Source of the DNA: Anaerolineae bacterium
GTDB lineage: Bacteria; Chloroflexota; Anaerolineae; Aggregatilineales; Phototrophicaceae
NCBI GenBank assembly: GCA_016788435.1
Contig: JAEURB010000422.1
Coordinates: 1 to 56,595 of the forward strand
Length of the DNA stretch: 56,595 bases
Reading direction: 5' to 3'
Below the pieces are notes generated by a model. The model worked only from the letters and a program-made list of their open reading frames with translations. It was not told where the DNA came from and made no database searches. The position numbers and the translations under genes were made by a program. How positions within the stretch are numbered: position 1 is the first letter of the stretch; each line of letters opens with the position of its first letter. Shown here one piece after another: positions 2,240 to 55,538 of the stretch.

Positions 2240-3385
2240 ATGGATACCTCCGCGCTGTTCGTTGGCTTCGCGGCCGGGCTGCTGATTGGGGCGGTCGCGG
2301 CGGCGGTCATCGTCTACACGCTGTTCGAGCGCCAGCGCCGGGCCAGCAGCGAGGCCCTGATCGAGACGCTGCGCCTGCAGGTGGCCGAGTTGACGCGGCA
2401 GGCCAACCGGGAAGCCAGCGCCGAACTGCTGCAGATGGCCGGCACGCAATTTGACTCACAACTGAGCAAGCACAGCGCGGTCGTTGAAGGCGAGAAGGCG
2501 CTGATTGACCAGCGCGTGACCGAACTCACAGGCCGCCTGGGGCAAGTCGAGGCGCTGATCGGTGAGTTTGAGCAAAGCCGCGCCGAACGGCTGGGGGCGC
2601 TGGGTGAAGAATTGCGCTCGCTGACCGCCTCGACGGACAAAATCGGGCAGGCGCTGACCTCGAACAAGGCGCGCGGCCAGTGGGGCGAGCGCATCGCTGA
2701 AGATGCCATTCGCGCCATCGGCCTGATCGAAGGGTTGCACTATAAGACGCAAGTGAAGGAATACAAGAATGGCACCGAAACGCAGCCCGACTTCACCTTT
2801 TTCCTTCCTTTGGACAAGCGCCTCAATATGGACTGCAAGTTCCCGCTGGCGAACTACCTGCGCGCTTTGGAAGCAGAAAGCGAATCAGAACGCCAGAGGT
2901 ACATGAAGACCTTTCTGAAGGATGTTCGGATGCGCGTCTCTGAGGTGACCACCCGCAACTATATCGCCCCTGAACATGGCACAGTTGACGTAGCCCTCAT
3001 CTTTATTCCCAACGAGTCACTTTACCAACTCATCCATGAGAACGACCCAACTCTGCTGGACTTCGCACGAAGCCAGAAGGTCGTTCTCGTCTCACCATAC
3101 ACACTTTATATGGTGCTGGCCGTTATCCGCGAAGCAGTGGATAACTTCACTTATCAGGAAAAAGCCCAGCAGATCGCCACCTTGATGCGTGAGTTTCGCA
3201 AAGAATGGCTCGCTTATACGGGGAAGTTGGTCGAAGTACGGAAGCAACTCGACTTGGCACATAACAAGTTTTCCGAATTGTTGGGGGAGCGTACCACTCG
3301 CCTCGACAAGGCGCTGGAGGCGGTGGCGCTGTACGGTGACGAGGCCGCCGCGACCGAACAACTGCCACTGGCGGCGGAGGAATAG
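2240..3385 (+). CDS. rmuC: DNA recombination protein RmuC
   Basis: N-terminal TM helix, coiled coil, RGQWGE motif, PD..MDCKFP nuclease-like motif, FIPNE and VSPYTL. Confidence 0.92.
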   Translation: MDTSALFVGFAAGLLIGAVAAAVIVYTLFERQRRASSEALIETLRLQVAELTRQANREASAELLQMAGTQFDSQLSKHSAVVEGEKALIDQRVTELTGRLGQVEALIGEFEQSRAERLGALGEELRSLTASTDKIGQALTSNKARGQWGERIAEDAIRAIGLIEGLHYKTQVKEYKNGTETQPDFTFFLPLDKRLNMDCKFPLANYLRALEAESESERQRYMKTFLKDVRMRVSEVTTRNYIAPEHGTVDVALIFIPNESLYQLIHENDPTLLDFARSQKVVLVSPYTLYMVLAVIREAVDNFTYQEKAQQIATLMREFRKEWLAYTGKLVEVRKQLDLAHNKFSELLGERTTRLDKALEAVALYGDEAAATEQLPLAAEE

Positions 3386-39541: not shown

Positions 39542-40492
39542 TCAGAGCGCGAACGCCTCCTCCAGTTCCTCACGCAGTGCAAGGTAGCTTTCGTGGCGCG
39601 ACGGCGCAATCAGGCCGCTTTTCACCGCCGCGCGAACGGCACAGCCTGGCTCGTCACGGTGCGCGCAGTCGGCCGCAAACTTGCAGCCGGGGGCCTGCGC
39701 CGCGATTTCCGGGAAGTAGGCGTCCAGCTCTTCCGGCTCGACATCCCAGATAGTCAGTGTACGCATCCCCGGCGTATCGGCCAGATAGCCGCCGAACGAC
39801 AGCCGCACCAATTCGCTGTCGCGCGTGGTGTGCTGCCCTTCCTGATGATAGCGGCTGACCCCCTTGACTGCACGCCCAAGGCCCGGCTCCAGTTGGTTGA
39901 GCAGGCTGGTTTTGCCCACGCCAGACGGGCCGGTAAAGACCGAAATCTGGCCCTGCAGCAGCTCGCGCAGCGCATCTATGCCCTCGCCGGTGGTAGCGCT
40001 GGTGGCGAAGACCGGGTAACCCAGGCGCTCGTAGAGGCCGAACAGCGCGCGCGACTCACCCGTCGTGTCGAGGTCAATCTTGTTGAGCACCAGCACGAGG
40101 CGGTCGAGGCCGGCTTTCTCACCCATGACGAGGAAGCGGTCAATCATGCGCGGGGCCGGGGCAGGCTGGGCCGCCGCGAAGACGAACAGCGCCTGATCGG
40201 CGTTGGCGATCAGCACCTGCTCGCGCTCGGGCGAGCCTGCGCCGCGCGCGCCGATGGTACGCATGGCCCGCGATACGGCGCTGCGGCGGGGTTCGATGGC
40301 CTCAATCGCACCAGTGCCATCCTCGTTCATCGTGAACTGCACCTGGTCGCCGATGGCCGCCAACGCGCTGGCTTGCGCCTCTTCCTTAAGACGCCCGCGC
40401 AGCCGGCAGAGGACGATCTGGCCGTCGTCAGCGGCTTCCACCTGAAAGAAGCCGCTCTGCGCTTTCACAATCAGGCCGCGCCGTGCATCCAA
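39542..40492 (-). CDS. rsgA: Ribosome small subunit-dependent GTPase A
   Basis: Circularly permuted GTPase: NKID, GPSGVGKTS, GQHTT, DTPG and C-terminal CKF..C.H..EPGC Zn site. Start is approximate (TTG 40492). Confidence 0.93.
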   Translation of the reverse strand: MDARRGLIVKAQSGFFQVEAADDGQIVLCRLRGRLKEEAQASALAAIGDQVQFTMNEDGTGAIEAIEPRRSAVSRAMRTIGARGAGSPEREQVLIANADQALFVFAAAQPAPAPRMIDRFLVMGEKAGLDRLVLVLNKIDLDTTGESRALFGLYERLGYPVFATSATTGEGIDALRELLQGQISVFTGPSGVGKTSLLNQLEPGLGRAVKGVSRYHQEGQHTTRDSELVRLSFGGYLADTPGMRTLTIWDVEPEELDAYFPEIAAQAPGCKFAADCAHRDEPGCAVRAAVKSGLIAPSRHESYLALREELEEAFAL

Positions 40493-40723
40493 TCGCCCCG
40501 TACCCCCGCCTGCTGTGCCGAAGAATGCGCGTTCGTAACGCGCCTGTGCTGTCATTCTACACAACTTTTGTGGAAGCCAACGCGAAGCGAAAGCACAACT
40601 GTTGCGGCGCACAGGGGACGGGCGAATGACGTTTGGGGTGAGGGGCGGGAGCTGTTCCGCAATGCGCACGCCCGGTATTCCACTTTGTCTTCCATTTATT
40701 CGTCCTTCCGTTCACCTTGGCCA

Positions 40724-40743
40724 TAGAACATACGTGCTAATAT
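40724..40743 (+). promoter_or_regulatory. LexA/SOS-box-like palindrome overlapping an extended -10 upstream of the capsid gene
   Basis: TAGAAC-ATAC-GTGCTA (one mismatch from a perfect TAGAAC-N4-GTTCTA palindrome) overlapping TGcTAATAT at 40735-40743. Confidence 0.6.
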
Positions 40744-40849
40744 TGAAGCCAGCGAACGATTAGGTTCGCTGGCAGCTTCACAACCCCATGACCGCCCCGC
40801 TCTGCACCATGACGCCCATCGCGTGTGGAGGACGGGAGGCGGAAAAGCA

Positions 40850-40950
40850 GTTGAAAGTTGAAGGTTGAAGGTTGAAAGTGCGCGCCTGACCAGACGGGCC
40901 GCTACCACTTCTCCTTCATCGTTTGGCTGTCAACTTTGAACTTTTAACTT
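40850..40950. repeat. Heptamer repeat (GTTGAAR)x4 with a degenerate inverted copy
   Basis: Four units at 40850-40877; tcaactttgaacttttaactt at ~40930-40950, just before the capsid RBS. Confidence 0.8.
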
Positions 40951-40972: not shown

Positions 40973-42763
40973 ATGACAGGTTCTCCGCAGGCCGTCAAAG
41001 CGCTGGACGGAAGCAGCGGACGGGTGGGCGGCTACCTCGTGGTGTGGGGCAGCCCGGCCAGCCGTGACTTGCAGGATGAGTATTTCACCCCGGCCACCGA
41101 TCTCGGCCTGGACTGGTTCGAACGGCGGCCGGTGCTGTATCACCACGGGCTGGATGGCGCGGTCAAGACGGCCGTCATCGGCGCGGTCGAGCAATTGACG
41201 CCCGACGCGATTGGCGTGTGGGCCGAAGCGCAGCTCGACATGCGCCAGAAGTACGCCCGCGCCGTCTACCGCCTGATCGAGCGCGGCGTGCTGAGCTGGT
41301 CGAGCGGCAGCCTGCCCCATCTGGTCGAGGTCGAGCCGGATGGCCGTATCGCCCGCTGGCCGCTGGTGGAGGGCAGCCTGACGCCTTCGCCCGCCGAACC
41401 GCGCCATACCGATGTGCGCACCATCAAAACCGCGTTCGCGCTGCTGGGCCTCGATCCGGCCCGGCTTGATCAACCACCGGTTTCCCCGGCAGACAAGGAG
41501 CATTCCCCGATGACCGAAATGATCCCGTTTACGCCGCCCAGCGAGGCGGCCCCGCTCAAGCGCCTGCCCGTCGCCAGCCCCGCCGACGCGGTGAAAGCGG
41601 GCGCTATCAGCGTCGGCAGCCCGTATGACGGCCTCGACGCGCTCGACCTGCTGCACGGCTACGTGATGCTGCGCGCGGTGAAGGGCTTCCAGGGCGTGAG
41701 CGAACGCTTTGCCGGCGCTTTGGCCCACAAGGTACGCGGCGCAGGAATGAGCGCGCTGAAGGCCGACGAACTGAACCGCAGCACGCTGACCGGCTTCGGT
41801 GACGAGTGGGTTCCCGACCTGTGGAGCGCGCAGATCTGGCGCAAGGCGCGCACCGAAAACGTGGTGCTGCCGCTCTTCCCGCAGATCGAGATGCCGAGCA
41901 ATCCGTTCGAGGTACCGACCGAAGGGGCCGATCCGTCGGTCTTCTTCGTGCCGGAAACGGCCGACGAGGCGCAGTTGGGGCTGGGCAGCGGCAACCCGAT
42001 CCCGGACAGCAAGATCGGCAGCGGCAAGGTGCAGTTGACGGCGAAGAAGCTGGCCCTGCGCGTGGGTTTCAGCGCCGAACTGGTCGAGGATGCCATCGTG
42101 CCGGTGCTGTCCCTCTACCGCGAACAGGCCGTGCGCGCCATCGCCGACAGCATGGATTACCTGCTGCTGAACGGTGACACGACAACCGCCGCGACCGGCA
42201 ACATCAACAAGGATAACGCCGCGCCGGCCGCCACCGACCGCTATCTGGCCTTCGACGGCCTGCGCAAGCTGGGGCTGGTGACCAACACCGCCAACCGCGT
42301 GGACGCCGCCAATGCCGCGCCGGCGCTGGCGCTGCTGCGCTCGGCCCGCTTCAAGCTGGACCCGCGCGCTTCGGTGCGCCCGGCCGACCTGGCCTGGATT
42401 GTGGACGCCGGGACGTACGCCAAGCTGCTGGCGATGAGCGAGTTCCTGACGATGGACAAGGCGGGTCCGCACGCGACGGCGCTGACCGGGCAGATCGGGC
42501 TGATGGACGGCTCGCCGGTGCTGGTGAGCGCCGAAATGCCGCTGACGGAAGCGGATGGCAAGGTAGGCGCAGGCCCGAATGACCGGGGCACGGCGCTGGT
42601 GGTGTATCGCCCGGGCTGGTACGTGGGCTACCGCCGCCGCATCGCCGTGAATGTGGACTACCTGCCCTACTACGACAGCTACCAGTTGACGGCGACGGTG
42701 CGGCTGGCGCTGGCCCCGTTCGATACGGACGCGGCCGCCGTGCTGTTCAATCTGGCGGTGTAG
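40973..42763 (+). CDS. Prohead protease / HK97-fold major capsid protein fusion
   Basis: N-terminal protease motifs VLYHHG, WSSGS and EGSLTPSPAEP. Capsid motifs GDEWVP, V.LTAKKL...FSAELVED and D.LLLNGD. AGGAGG RBS. Confidence 0.85.
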   Translation: MTGSPQAVKALDGSSGRVGGYLVVWGSPASRDLQDEYFTPATDLGLDWFERRPVLYHHGLDGAVKTAVIGAVEQLTPDAIGVWAEAQLDMRQKYARAVYRLIERGVLSWSSGSLPHLVEVEPDGRIARWPLVEGSLTPSPAEPRHTDVRTIKTAFALLGLDPARLDQPPVSPADKEHSPMTEMIPFTPPSEAAPLKRLPVASPADAVKAGAISVGSPYDGLDALDLLHGYVMLRAVKGFQGVSERFAGALAHKVRGAGMSALKADELNRSTLTGFGDEWVPDLWSAQIWRKARTENVVLPLFPQIEMPSNPFEVPTEGADPSVFFVPETADEAQLGLGSGNPIPDSKIGSGKVQLTAKKLALRVGFSAELVEDAIVPVLSLYREQAVRAIADSMDYLLLNGDTTTAATGNINKDNAAPAATDRYLAFDGLRKLGLVTNTANRVDAANAAPALALLRSARFKLDPRASVRPADLAWIVDAGTYAKLLAMSEFLTMDKAGPHATALTGQIGLMDGSPVLVSAEMPLTEADGKVGAGPNDRGTALVVYRPGWYVGYRRRIAVNVDYLPYYDSYQLTATVRLALAPFDTDAAAVLFNLAV

Positions 42764-43662: not shown

Positions 43663-43823
43663 AGTGTACCACAGTTCCTGAGCGCCCTTCCAAATCGCCC
43701 GGCTGGCGCTGGCCCCGTTCGACACCGGCGTGACGGCATTGCTGTTCAATCTGGCGGTGTTAGGGCGAAGTAATAAACAAACGCCAAGAACGCCAAGGGG
43801 GGCCGGGGAAAGGGAACGGCCCC

Positions 43824-52106: not shown

Positions 52107-52163
52107 ACCCTGCTACCCAATCCATAGCCTGAAAGTCTGACTACCGTGAACGGAGGTTGCCCC

Positions 52164-52898
52164 GTGTCTACTCTTGCGACACTTGCTGAACTGCACCGTC
52201 ATCTCGGCCTGCGCGCCGATGAGACGAGCGACGATGACCGCCTGTTGACCGCCCTGGAAGCCGCCAGCGCCGACCTGGAGCGCGAGTGCGGCCGCCGCTT
52301 CGAGCCGCGCCTCGCGGCCATCACGCACACCGATGTTCAGTCAGGAGATACGCTCTCGCTGGCCGACGATCTGCTCGAACTGACTGGGTTGTACGACGCC
52401 GGCGGCGCAATCCCGCTGGAGGCCGTGACGCGCATCCCGGCCGATGGCCCGGCGGCGCTGCTGCGGCTGGCCGAGGGCCTGTACTTCATGGCGGGCGAAG
52501 TGACCGTGACCGGCTGGTGGGGCTGGCATGACGACCCGGCCGCGCTGTGGGCAGCGACCGGCCAGACGGTGCAGGACGACCCGCTGCAGGCCGCCGCCGA
52601 TCAGGTGACGGTGGCCGAACCCGCCGCCTTCTCGCCGGGGCAACTGTTGCGGCTGAACGCCGAGGTGCTGCGCGTGGCGGTGGTTCCATCTACGCCTGGC
52701 CCGATTTACGTGCTGCGCGCTCAGTGCGGCACCGAAGCGGCCAGCCACGCTCAGGGGACAGGTATCGAAAGCTGCGCGCCATCGCCCGACGTGCGCGACC
52801 TCGTGTTGCGCCGGGCGGCCTGGCTGGCGCGCCGCGCCGAACCACTGCCCGATGCGCTGCGCCAGCCCGCCCGCCGCTGGCGGCGCGAGCGCGTGTAG
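52164..52898 (+). CDS. Phage head-tail connector-like protein (gp6/gp15 type) with an inserted beta domain
   Basis: ATLAEL.RHLG....DDDRL..ALEAAS...ERECGRRF N-terminus, V.VTG.WGW and P.DVR..V. GGAGG RBS and GTG start. Confidence 0.7.
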   Translation: MSTLATLAELHRHLGLRADETSDDDRLLTALEAASADLERECGRRFEPRLAAITHTDVQSGDTLSLADDLLELTGLYDAGGAIPLEAVTRIPADGPAALLRLAEGLYFMAGEVTVTGWWGWHDDPAALWAATGQTVQDDPLQAAADQVTVAEPAAFSPGQLLRLNAEVLRVAVVPSTPGPIYVLRAQCGTEAASHAQGTGIESCAPSPDVRDLVLRRAAWLARRAEPLPDALRQPARRWRRERV

Positions 52899-52909
52899 GA
52901 GACCCATCA

Positions 52910-53368
52910 ATGACCCCGTTTGCCGATGCCCTTGCCGCGCTGGCCACCTTGCAGCCCGCCGGAATTGCCGCCCGCTTCAGCATTGAGGATGCCCCCGGCC
53001 AACTCAACCGCGCCCAGTTCCCAGCCCTGCTCGTGCGCCCCTACGATGAGCAGGAGCGCCGCCTGTTCCGCGAGCGTGGCGAGGCCTTCGAAGCGCTCGC
53101 TTTCGCCAACGGCCCGGCGCTCGTCACCTGTGCCGTCACGCATCTATTGCTCGTCGCGCCCGAGGACAGCGGGCTGGGCGCACGCTCACAACTACCACCT
53201 CTCGCCAGCCTGCTCGATGCCTACTTCGCCGCGCTGGCCGCCGATCCCATGCTGGGCGGCGCGCTGGCTTCCCCGGCCCGCGTCTCCGTCGAAGCGGGCG
53301 TGTTCACCTTTGGCGACCTGCGCTGCATCGGCGCAGCCCTGCGCCACCGCTGGCAGGTTGCGTACTGA
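52910..53368 (+). CDS. Putative phage tail-completion/terminator-like protein
   Basis: 152 aa, follows the connector; FPALLV.P and AL.ADP.LGG motifs; AGGAG RBS. Confidence 0.5.
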   Translation: MTPFADALAALATLQPAGIAARFSIEDAPGQLNRAQFPALLVRPYDEQERRLFRERGEAFEALAFANGPALVTCAVTHLLLVAPEDSGLGARSQLPPLASLLDAYFAALAADPMLGGALASPARVSVEAGVFTFGDLRCIGAALRHRWQVAY

Positions 53369-53382
53369 CGAAAGGCTCTCTC

Positions 53383-54870
53383 ATGCCCCACACCTATACG
53401 ATCACACTGGATACCGCCGATGACGGCACGCCGCTCGATCTCACGCCAGACGTGCGGGCGCTGGAATGGCGGCTCGGCTCGGAGCATCCCGAACAAGCCC
53501 TTGCGCCGTCCGGCCGCGCCCGCCTCACCCTATACAATGTGGGCGGCCGCTATGCCGCTGGCGTGCCCGATTGGGCCGGGCGCTGGCTCGTCATTCGCTG
53601 CCACGACGGCGAAACGGAGCGCGTCCATTTCAGCGGGCTGGTCGAGGCTATCCGGCCAGGCACCGGGCCGGATAAGGCCGGACTGGCGTACCTCGACGCG
53701 GTGACGGCCGATGCCGGTTTATCTGCGCTCACGGCCGCGCTGCCCCCGCTGGTGGATAGCGCGCCCGGCCCGTTGATCGCGGCATTGCTGGCCGGTTTGC
53801 CGCTGCGCCGGGCGGACTTGCACGCCGCCTGGGTGCTGGAAACCACAGGCTTTGGCGAACTGGATACAACCTCGCGGCTGGCCGAATTGCTGGCTTTGCC
53901 GGTGGAGGCTGACGAGGGCATCGCGCGTTTTGCGTGGGCGGCGCTGGGCGGGCTGCCAGCGAACGAGGCGCTGCGCCAGATTGTGGTCAGCGAGGGCGGG
54001 CGCGGCGCGATGGATCGCGAAGGCGTGTTTATCTTCCGCGACCGGCACCAGCCGCTGCGGGCACTGCCGGACGCGCTCGAGTTCTCCGGCCGGATGCTGG
54101 GCCTCGAACTGGTCGTGGGTGAGGAGTGGGCCAACTGCGTGCAGGTGCATTTCGCGCCGGTTGTGCTGGGCGAAGCGGATATGGTGCTGTGGACGCTCGA
54201 ACGGCCGCAGAAGCTGCCGCCGGGCACACGCCGGATGACCGTGCGCTTTCACGCTGCCAACGGCGAATCCGTCGCTGCGTGGCGAGTGGATCGTCTGATC
54301 GCCAGCGCCGCCGAACACGACGATGGCAGCGGCCGTCCGATGCCGCTCGAGGCGCTGATTGTCGCCGTCAACGCCCGCCAGGCCACGCTCGAACTCCGCA
54401 ATCCGTCAGCAGAAGATATTTGGCTGCTGGCGGGTGCGCGGCTGGAAGGTACACCGCTGTACTTCGGCGCTGCGCTGATGGCCGAACAGGTGGACGAGCA
54501 AAGCATGGCCTTTCACGGCCCGCGCCGCCGTAACCTCGTGCTGCCGCTGGCCGGTTCGCTGGACGACGCGGATGGCCGCGCGCGCTTCGAGTTGCTGCGC
54601 GCCCCCCGGCCATCGCCCCGCGCCGCCTGGATTGACCTTGATACGCGGGCCGCCCCGCAGGCGCTGGCCGTGACCCTTGGCGGCCGGGTTCGCGTGCGCG
54701 ATTCGCCGTCTTCCCACGATGCCGCCTATCACGTCATTGGCGAGGCGCACACGGTGGACGACGGGGGCGCGCGTCATCGCATCCGCCTGTTCCTCGAACC
54801 AGCCTCCCTCACCCGCTTCTGGGAAATCAGCCTCTGCGCGCTCGGCAGCGAAACCGCGCTGGCGTATTAA
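53383..54870 (+). CDS. Putative phage minor tail/baseplate hub-like protein
   Basis: DLT.DV, G.A.LTL.N..GRY, FSG.V..I, SEGG...DREG.F.FRDR, LGGRVRV.D, Y.VIG..H and FW...S.LG..T.LAY; these patterns resemble siphovirus-type tail proteins. Confidence 0.6.
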   Translation: MPHTYTITLDTADDGTPLDLTPDVRALEWRLGSEHPEQALAPSGRARLTLYNVGGRYAAGVPDWAGRWLVIRCHDGETERVHFSGLVEAIRPGTGPDKAGLAYLDAVTADAGLSALTAALPPLVDSAPGPLIAALLAGLPLRRADLHAAWVLETTGFGELDTTSRLAELLALPVEADEGIARFAWAALGGLPANEALRQIVVSEGGRGAMDREGVFIFRDRHQPLRALPDALEFSGRMLGLELVVGEEWANCVQVHFAPVVLGEADMVLWTLERPQKLPPGTRRMTVRFHAANGESVAAWRVDRLIASAAEHDDGSGRPMPLEALIVAVNARQATLELRNPSAEDIWLLAGARLEGTPLYFGAALMAEQVDEQSMAFHGPRRRNLVLPLAGSLDDADGRARFELLRAPRPSPRAAWIDLDTRAAPQALAVTLGGRVRVRDSPSSHDAAYHVIGEAHTVDDGGARHRIRLFLEPASLTRFWEISLCALGSETALAY

Positions 54871-54876
54871 GGGCAA

Positions 54877-55004
54877 GTTGAAAGTTGAAGGTTGAAAGTT
54901 AAAAGAGAGGCCGGTGACTCAACACCATCCGTACCTACCGTTTGCCTTTCAACCTTCGAGTCGGACCTTCCAGCACTTTCAACTCTCAACTCTCAACTCG
55001 TAAC
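54877..55004. repeat. Heptamer repeat (GTTRAAR)x4 with an inverted (TYTCAAC)n array
   Basis: Forward units at 54877-54904; TTTCAAC TCTCAAC TCTCAAC TCGTAAC at 54977-55004. Confidence 0.85.
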
Positions 55005-55028
55005 TCGTACCTCCAAAGGAGCACTCCT

Positions 55029-55538
55029 ATGACCGCGATCTGGACCCTGCCGCGCACCTGGGCAACCGGCGAAATTGTGACGGCCGCGCAGCTCAATACT
55101 CACCTGCGCGACAACTTCGAGTACCTCAAGCAGCGCGACGAAACGCCGCTCAATCACTTCACGTGCAGTTCTGGCACCGCCTACACCACCACCTCGACCT
55201 CGTTCACCGACGTGGACGCCGCCGGGCTGTCTGGTACGCTGATCACGACCGGCGGGCCGCTGCTGATTGGCATTGCGGGCAGTTGGAAATCGAGCGGCAC
55301 CGGCATTGACGTGTGCCTCGACGTGAGCATCAACGGCGCGCGCATGGGCCACGCCACCTACGGCGTCACCTTCATGCAGAGCATCGCCGCCAACGCCTAC
55401 CTGCCGGTCGCGTGGTCACAGGTGCGCGCGTTGGCCGCCGGAACGTACGCGCTCAAATTGCAGTGGCGCACGTCCAGCGGCACGCTGTCGCTGGGGCCGT
55501 ACAGCGCGGCGCAGTTCTACGCCGTGGAACTGGTCTAG
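55029..55538 (+). CDS. Putative short tail fibre / receptor-binding-like protein
   Basis: N-terminal WT.PRTW..GE.VTAAQLN..LRDN..YLK anchor-like motif, then a Ser/Thr-rich beta domain (TTSTSFTD, L.AGTY..KLQWR); AAGGAG RBS. Confidence 0.6.
   Translation: MTAIWTLPRTWATGEIVTAAQLNTHLRDNFEYLKQRDETPLNHFTCSSGTAYTTTSTSFTDVDAAGLSGTLITTGGPLLIGIAGSWKSSGTGIDVCLDVSINGARMGHATYGVTFMQSIAANAYLPVAWSQVRALAAGTYALKLQWRTSSGTLSLGPYSAAQFYAVELV

Follow-up and report, generated by a model that had tools for sequence, protein, structure and literature searches.

A LexA-type operator precedes the capsid gene of a dispersed, probable virion module in Chloroflexota

What controls a phage-type capsid gene that lies among the chromosomal genes of an Anaerolineae bacterium, and why would the cell keep it? 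The window, by which we mean the whole stretch of 56,595 nucleotides that was analysed, encodes on its plus strand a fused HK97-type prohead protease and major capsid protein of 596 amino acids (40973..42763; Pfam Peptidase_S78 and Phage_capsid, PHROG major head). The gene is divergent from rsgA and surrounded by host genes, and its protease residues H58, S110, S111 and E133 are invariant in 29 aligned proteins. The original prediction placed a LexA-type site over an extended −10 about 230 bp upstream of the capsid ATG, and proposed that host LexA would govern particle production after DNA damage. Both sequence elements were confirmed. The operator, of the form GAAC-N4-GTGC, reads TAGAAC-ATAC-GTGCTA (40724..40739, without assigned strand), and the extended −10 (TG-C-TAATAT; 40735..40743, plus strand) lies over its right half-site. 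The operator ends 233 bp before the ATG at 40973.

To score the site, we used a symmetric matrix built from 40 distinct pattern-matching sites upstream of lexA and recA, with the capsid sequence excluded. The operator scores 18.4 bits, compared with 18.4 for the recA box and 18.6 for lexA, and ranks 14 in the 3.87 Mb assembly. Thirteen intergenic sites reach 18.4 bits in the real sequence versus none or one in each of 10 shuffles. The motif type had been predicted as well, and Gibbs sampling of 30 lexA and 30 recA upstream regions of this lineage recovered AGAAC-N4-GTTC de novo. In this genome, the LexA-type motif is GAAC-N4-GTTC with G/A-TGC variants, and the leader of its own lexA contains GAAC-TTGT-GTTC and GAAC-ATCT-GTGC. 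LexA proteins of the Gram-positive and Dehalococcoides type bind GAAC-N4-GTTC.

The operator half-site is not merely a by-product of the −10 element, since GAAC stands in register at only 6 of the 157 upstream TGCTAnnnT sites, one of the six being recA. The recA promoter of the same genome (TAGAAC-AAAA-ATGC-TAAAAT) shows the same layout of an operator over an extended −10. A simple sigma-70 scan did not list the capsid promoter because it requires a −35, and the promoter, read by us from the extended −10, is thus a putative one. We consider it very likely that the capsid site is a genuine LexA operator. LexA bound over the extended −10 would block RNA polymerase, as it would at the identically built recA promoter.

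The prediction also depended on conservation of the site before orthologous capsid genes. We scanned the 500 bp upstream of 53 capsid genes, namely that of this genome, 12 close orthologues and 40 others chosen among the best-scoring matches at one or two per genus (G018 was omitted, as its contig begins inside the gene). A box of at least 14 bits is kept in 37 of the 53 leaders despite differing upstream neighbours, compared with 37 of 2729 ordinary genes of this genome; because kin are not independent, such leader counts measure conservation and not probability. At least 11 bits are reached in 43 leaders, while 10 stay under that value. The operator overlaps an extended −10 in 29 of the 53, and some orthologues have a perfect GTTC half-site. 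Shuffled controls gave a mean of 0.27, and distant capsid homologues 0 of 8. The divergent rsgA gene was considered as the operator's target and rejected: the box accompanies the capsid gene while the upstream neighbours differ among genomes, and it therefore belongs to the capsid gene.

In relatives, the box is found at a second locus of the same set of genes. In the 1 kb preceding the large terminase gene, at least 14 bits are reached by 38 of 51 leaders (33 of them with an extended −10) versus 47 of 2526 ordinary genes, although a few of these boxes may serve an intervening gene. Upstream of this genome's own terminase, no site was found in the 754 bp that precede the contig end. No comparable box was found upstream of orthologues of the portal, adaptor, terminator, hub and fibre genes. 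In three clusters of the family that we denote f4, the box precedes the portal that heads each cluster, and both f4 terminase loci that were tested carry it (2/2). By motif match and by its promoter-blocking, conserved position, the capsid gene qualifies as a predicted member of the LexA (SOS) regulon.

Other top-scoring sites in the genome precede ssb, nurA, ftsK, gyrA, a radical-SAM gene and glyoxalase-type genes. Among 21 genes scanned beside top sites, some look unrelated and six have no Pfam match. The predicted regulon is unusual in its strong boxes at gyrA, ftsK, nurA, several glyoxalase/bleomycin-resistance-type genes, a RibD-like gene and a BNR-repeat gene (L094, L098, L099, L102, L104, L106, L108, L110), and the gyrA box is present in most of 30 relatives too. 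Within the window, a 13.4-bit LexA-type site at 2164-2179 lies upstream of rmuC (2240-3385), which is likely another SOS gene. The recA match ends at residue 239 within much longer frames in several genomes (G001, G002, G013, G014, G016, G017), which suggests inteins at one site. A lexA leader with both boxes recurs nearly identically at the end of a contig (C53:6388, C184:1658) and is probably an assembly overlap or a strain variant.

The box could be bound by LexA or another regulator and nonetheless fail to be released by DNA damage, particle genes answering to some other cue. The cleavage position of LexA is Ala-Ser in place of the usual Ala-Gly in this genome and in 19 of 30 loci, the remaining 11 having Ala-Gly (L001, L035-L063), and we count this substitution against the reading that we favour below. 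In addition, LexA of Rhodobacter is described as affecting production of gene transfer agents (GTAs) indirectly and positively (PMC6363796), and phage GIL01 as requiring an accessory factor beside LexA (PMC4551915), as far as the sections of these papers considered here go. However, the catalytic Ser and Lys are retained in all 30 LexA loci, and the same box precedes recA, lexA, ssb, nurA and gyrA. We hold it to be very unlikely that the site is insensitive to damage.

As had also been claimed, no phage repressor is encoded nearby: there is none among the 39 window proteins scanned, and in this 91%-complete genome lexA is the sole S24 peptidase over the cut-off in a search for a CI-type repressor. 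The LexA box had been taken to support domestication. By itself it would not prove it, since phages and satellites also use LexA (GIL01, SaPI operon I), but distribution, co-occurrence, trees and purifying selection support the claim independently of the box.

Capsid matches are present in 228 of the 301 genomes of the order, mostly as one copy with 58-76% identity. By family, they occur in 170/200 genomes of f1, 29/34 of f2, 7/7 of f6, 6/20 of f7 and 0/15 of f8; a reading of the table by eye identified 13 f4 matches, the sole f5 match and 9 f1 matches as distant homologues. In the window's own genus, close capsid orthologues occur in 10 of 36 genomes, a count that speaks against the favoured reading. 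Phylum-wide, 7 of 301 genomes match the capsid and only two of them, both of this genus, do so closely. Capsid-bearing genomes encode the terminase in 40/40 cases and the portal in 39/40, and the hub protein is present in 5/5 near-closed genomes. A terminase orthologue was found in none of 16 capsid-less genomes, six of which gave short matches with E 1e-6 or weaker.

In the 48 genomes that have all three genes, the capsid tree shares 19 of 45 splits with that of gyrA and the terminase tree 15 of 45, compared with at most 3 for random trees. Among well-supported splits, 5 of 18 conflict with gyrA for the capsid and 0 of 14 for the terminase. The capsid thus broadly tracks the host tree, with mostly vertical descent. 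Rough dN/dS values (NG86; 12 of 13 pairs, one being saturated) are 0.11-0.31 for the capsid, 0.11-0.36 for the terminase and 0.07-0.28 for gyrA; capsid and terminase are under purifying selection. We regard the domestication of the module as very likely.

These data bear on the view that the locus is what remains of a prophage in decay, its LexA-like site being a relic or due to chance. Capsids of related phages are about as similar to the query as the f2 orthologues, and three near-identical viral contigs have the box just before the capsid gene, both of which a remnant would explain. On the other hand, decay does not agree with genes that keep open reading frames and a single copy throughout the order, have dN/dS of 0.1-0.3, lie up to 1.1 Mb apart and retain the box at two unlinked loci, and this explanation, largely refuted, retains almost no probability. 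The three viral contigs (L355, L356, L359) are tailed-phage-like and show several strong LexA-type sites, one of them about 120 bp before the capsid gene, so the LexA wiring may predate capture.

Other observations speak against one clean origin of the capsids. Related capsids are encoded at 26 IMG/VR loci, many with tail genes, and the module capsids are interleaved with those of tailed phages from IMG/VR. A single origin was mildly rejected (p-AU 0.031; 34 of 85 rows), while f1 and f6 capsids form a supported clade (95/97). Capsid exchange or multiple captures are likely. The f4 clusters (L129, L130, L131) have the tube-less gene order of the module with a distant capsid and portal and a related terminase, and point either to domestication having happened twice or to replacement of the head. 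With the same wiring on another capsid lineage, they would mean convergence, or replacement of the head inside a stable regulatory frame.

The remaining genes of the module are partly in the same window, on the plus strand. A head-tail adaptor (52164..52898, with an alternative GTG start at 52146; phrog_442, E 2e-11, and a weak match to Pfam Phage_connect_1) is followed by a protein of 152 amino acids (52910..53368) of a conserved family, which we call terminator-like from its position after the adaptor and from an Atlas lead, a neighbour cluster at 0.95 with PF23840 on 11% of its members. Alignment of this protein against PDB sequences matched designed armadillo repeats only and was judged spurious. 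Directly 3′ of it lies the gene of a 495-residue baseplate-hub protein (53383..54870) with the Mu gp44 / T4 gp27 / Tal / VgrG-base fold (AlphaFold pLDDT 86.7; Foldseek E 4e-14 to 1e-8 against hub proteins). The predicted complex of hub and terminator scored 0.02, which is evidence neither way. A short fibre-like protein of 169 amino acids with a TNF/C1q-type lectin head (55029..55538; pLDDT 92.7) resembles a cyanophage short-fibre domain and the BC2L-C lectin (Foldseek E about 3e-6), and is predicted from its model to be a receptor-binding protein.

This genome holds single intact copies of the terminase, portal, capsid, adaptor, terminator-like, hub and fibre genes at four loci. The terminase is on contig C30, preceded by an open frame with a helix-turn-helix (HTH), the predicted small terminase, and the portal on C339; adaptor, terminator-like, hub and fibre genes share the capsid's window at 52164-55538. 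The Walker A/B motifs and nuclease aspartates of the terminase are invariant. The gene order in relatives is terminase, portal, protease-capsid, adaptor, terminator-like, hub, fibre and small genes, with host genes interrupting variably. Capsid and terminase are 8 kb to 1.1 Mb apart in the 14 genomes that have both on one contig, and the capsid gene is often isolated among host genes. For one module protein, the Atlas clusters consist mainly of Chloroflexota members. At the capsid gene of this window, the 3′ end (42701-42763) is repeated 1 kb downstream at 43700-43760 with 87% identity over 61 bp; the repeats flank a 936-bp insert of 56% GC with two small minus-strand frames, which looks like an integration into the capsid 3′ end. 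Neither frame matched Pfam or PHROG, and the insert has no other copy in the genome.

The frequent isolation of the capsid gene among host genes would suit an encapsulin-like compartment without DNA cargo, and Family 3 encapsulins indeed carry the PF05065 annotation and are a domesticated HK97-fold shell gene in host context (PMC8346489, in the part consulted). An encapsulin, however, would be a shell with cargo and no portal or terminase. Here, intact portal and terminase genes co-occur with the capsid and are co-inherited with it together with tip proteins, a maturation protease is fused to the shell protein, and no conserved cargo or biosynthetic cluster adjoins. A compartment of this kind is highly improbable.

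If the module builds a particle, several of the usual parts were not found for it. Searches of this 91%-complete genome by tblastn, HMM and PF10145 found no tail tube and no tape measure, a result that depends on the queries used; nor did they find a lysis gene, with the same dependence on queries. The tube identity of the queries comes from gene position and an Atlas lead at 0.88. In five relatives, one tube-like query gave a weak match in one (1/5), a second tube query, for which a positive control was absent, gave none (0/5), and PF10145 matched in one (1/5), beside additional hub copies in what are apparently prophages. This genome yielded no match for the holin-like and 115-amino-acid genes of f2, f4 and f6 clusters. 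In related phages, further tail genes including the tape measure follow the terminator-like gene, whereas the module has none there. That neither a lysis gene nor a tail tube was found we count against the favoured reading, as these parts bear on release and on DNA delivery.

The host might instead keep only the head and tip, as a kit that depends on a prophage or disturbs it. The SOS response would switch on both, and the module would borrow tube and tape-measure proteins from the prophage or poison phage assembly, as capsid-forming satellites do. The parts that the searches failed to find are precisely the tube and the tape measure, the lysis gene was likewise not found in this genome, homologues of the adaptor, terminator, hub and fibre genes occur in prophages of these hosts, and SaPIs provide an example of LexA control over a terminase operon (PMC3152322, in the text available). 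Against this, the module is intact in near-closed genomes without a tube or tape-measure match (G113, G137), its own hub and fibre are retained, which a tail thief would not need, and its genes are scattered over the chromosome, which precludes mobilisation as a satellite. Beside the module genes we saw neither an integrase nor a replication module, and these genes do not form the contiguous element with integrase, repressor and replication genes that a prophage or satellite would present. We consider dependence on a prophage, or interference with one, unlikely.

Another possibility is an SOS-linked device for self-destruction or DNA release, in which the terminase cuts and sequesters the damaged chromosome, or protected DNA is freed as nutrient or matrix, with no delivery to other cells. 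Relatives have a box of its own for the nuclease-bearing terminase, and an injection tube was not found. The hub and lectin fibre are nevertheless kept with the head genes, pointing to attachment to target cells, and we judge such a device to be quite unlikely.

Instead, we favour a domesticated, dispersed, GTA-like and tube-less virion module with host LexA on the capsid promoter, which DNA damage would likely derepress; on the sequence evidence assembled here, this is the probable reading as a whole. Besides the points already named, the 10 low-scoring capsid leaders, the site-less 754 bp before this genome's terminase, the five conflicting capsid splits and the interleaving with phage capsids weigh against it. 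Host LexA would then govern particle production after DNA damage, as proposed. RecA-triggered cleavage of LexA would free the capsid and terS-terL promoters together, coupling head building to DNA cutting. The HTH-bearing small terminase and the intact large terminase would load the heads with host DNA; host DNA is the expected cargo because the module genes, up to 1.1 Mb apart, could not be packaged as a unit. Adaptor and terminator-like rings would cap the portal, and hub and lectin fibre would form a stub for attachment to cells nearby. Kin would likely benefit by receiving repair templates or alleles after damage, as is reported for the Caulobacter GTA. The function of the particle is the weak step of this reading.

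A bolder version, which we put forward only tentatively, would see in the module a new class of viriform fixed in an order of Chloroflexota. It would be a head-plus-tip particle from which tube and tape measure have been deleted, with the terminator docked on the hub, wired to the SOS response at two unlinked promoters with leader RNAs of their own, the packaged chromosome serving kin as repair template. No description of the module was found in the literature searched, although subscription papers and supplements lay largely outside that search and surveys of GTAs or prophages could include it.

How does the module compare with systems already described? RcGTA, CcGTA, BaGTA and BhGTA/VSH-1 are viriforms by the definition of PMC9662315. 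As far as the part of that source used here goes, the module is GTA-like on paper, agreeing by computation with three of its criteria, though known from genes alone: the genes include Caudoviricete-derived proteins for a virion-like particle, and endogenisation is full, over four loci here. Like GTAs, it has a Caudoviricete-derived head, portal and terminase, several loci and mostly vertical descent; RcGTA genes are spread over five loci (PMC5026251, in the portion consulted). Unlike them, it occurs in a different phylum, stems from a separate phage ancestor, and yielded no tube or tape measure in our searches.

Regulation differs further. In the parts of these papers considered, mitomycin C induces production of BhGTA (PMC9662315), CcGTA aids DNA repair under its own repressor, with the dedicated regulators RogA and GafYZ (PMC9632790), and LexA acts on RcGTA indirectly, through CckA (PMC6363796). 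In contrast to RcGTA and CcGTA, the module has predicted direct operators for host LexA on capsid and terminase. Its packaging gene would in this respect resemble SaPI operon I, which includes terS and is LexA-regulated (PMC3152322, as excerpted). The module differs from SaPIs and PICIs in that no integrase or replication genes were seen next to it, in being dispersed and vertically inherited, and in its own hub and fibre. Capsid-forming PICIs (cf-PICIs) make heads without tails, and the module would resemble them in making heads, no tail tube of its own having been found. In phage GIL01, host LexA replaces a CI-type repressor (PMC4551915, in the sections seen); that phage is a self-replicating virus, whereas the module genes lie in the chromosome and form no contiguous genome.

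Pyocins are SOS-induced. With tailocins and extracellular contractile injection systems (R/F pyocins, PVC, Afp) the module shares domesticated phage parts and the hub fold, but it is the reverse of tailocins, which keep tube and sheath and lose the head, whereas here head and tip are kept and a tube was not found. A particle of head plus hub without tube or tape measure would, if true, be a new virion architecture. The reason why cells keep GTAs is debated, DNA repair being a leading hypothesis, with experimental support from Caulobacter. In the GTAs compared here, LexA is indirect or uninvolved. With an independently domesticated module that has conserved operators before both capsid and terminase, the repair hypothesis could be put directly to the test in a distant phylum: if it is true, particles should appear upon damage and should rescue kin. 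This stretch is present in RNA libraries from sludge and biofilm, so a route of gene transfer, if there is one, would bear on those communities.

Finally, the leader between operator and capsid gene contains further elements. A hairpin had been noted downstream of the operator, and it is present on the plus strand (arms 40748-40757 and 40764-40773) and stable, with a fold of −20.9 kcal/mol over 40744-40781 (z −6.3, 0/200 shuffles); its sequence, however, diverges in orthologue leaders. The hairpin was rejected as a second operator, as the spacing of CGAAC-N6-GTTCG is wrong and it is absent among window sites of at least 10 bits. The conserved features of f1 leaders are instead a boxA-like motif and a two-helix element. 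The motif (40772..40784, plus strand; consensus about GCA(C/G)CTTAACAAC), recognised by eye in about half of the f1 leaders and to be taken as a lead only, resembles GYTCTTTAANA, the gamma-proteobacterial boxA (PMC5725501, in the part consulted). The comparison is with that consensus, no rRNA having been found in this assembly.

The two-helix element (40792..40842, plus strand), probably an RNA structure, is present in 22 of 53 leaders, with 94.5% of cells paired and 6 of 15 pairs altered on both sides, exceeding shuffled and slid controls; the search pattern and the structure were derived from the very leaders and alignment on which they were counted. In terminase leaders the conserved fold is another one (pattern match in 20 of 52, alignment of 18). 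This element covaries, begins shortly past the terS-terL −10 (L162:1064-1156, L251:1368-1457) and is possibly an antiterminator or a packaging signal. Rfam gave no match in the capsid leader and only a tRNA across 15 orthologue loci, and neither leader fold is in Rfam. By analogy with CcGTA, which employs a Nus-containing antitermination complex (PMC11150451, as far as excerpted), the leader elements may act in antitermination, a role that we offer as a lead. RNA-library contigs from four studies span parts of the capsid gene and leave 40406-40707 uncovered; as contigs reveal neither transcription nor its start or level, we gave them no weight. Intergenic repeats of the TTGAAGG/TTTCAAC type occur at 40849-40880, 40930-40950 and 54870-55020 as well as elsewhere in the genome, and probably represent a small dispersed repeat.
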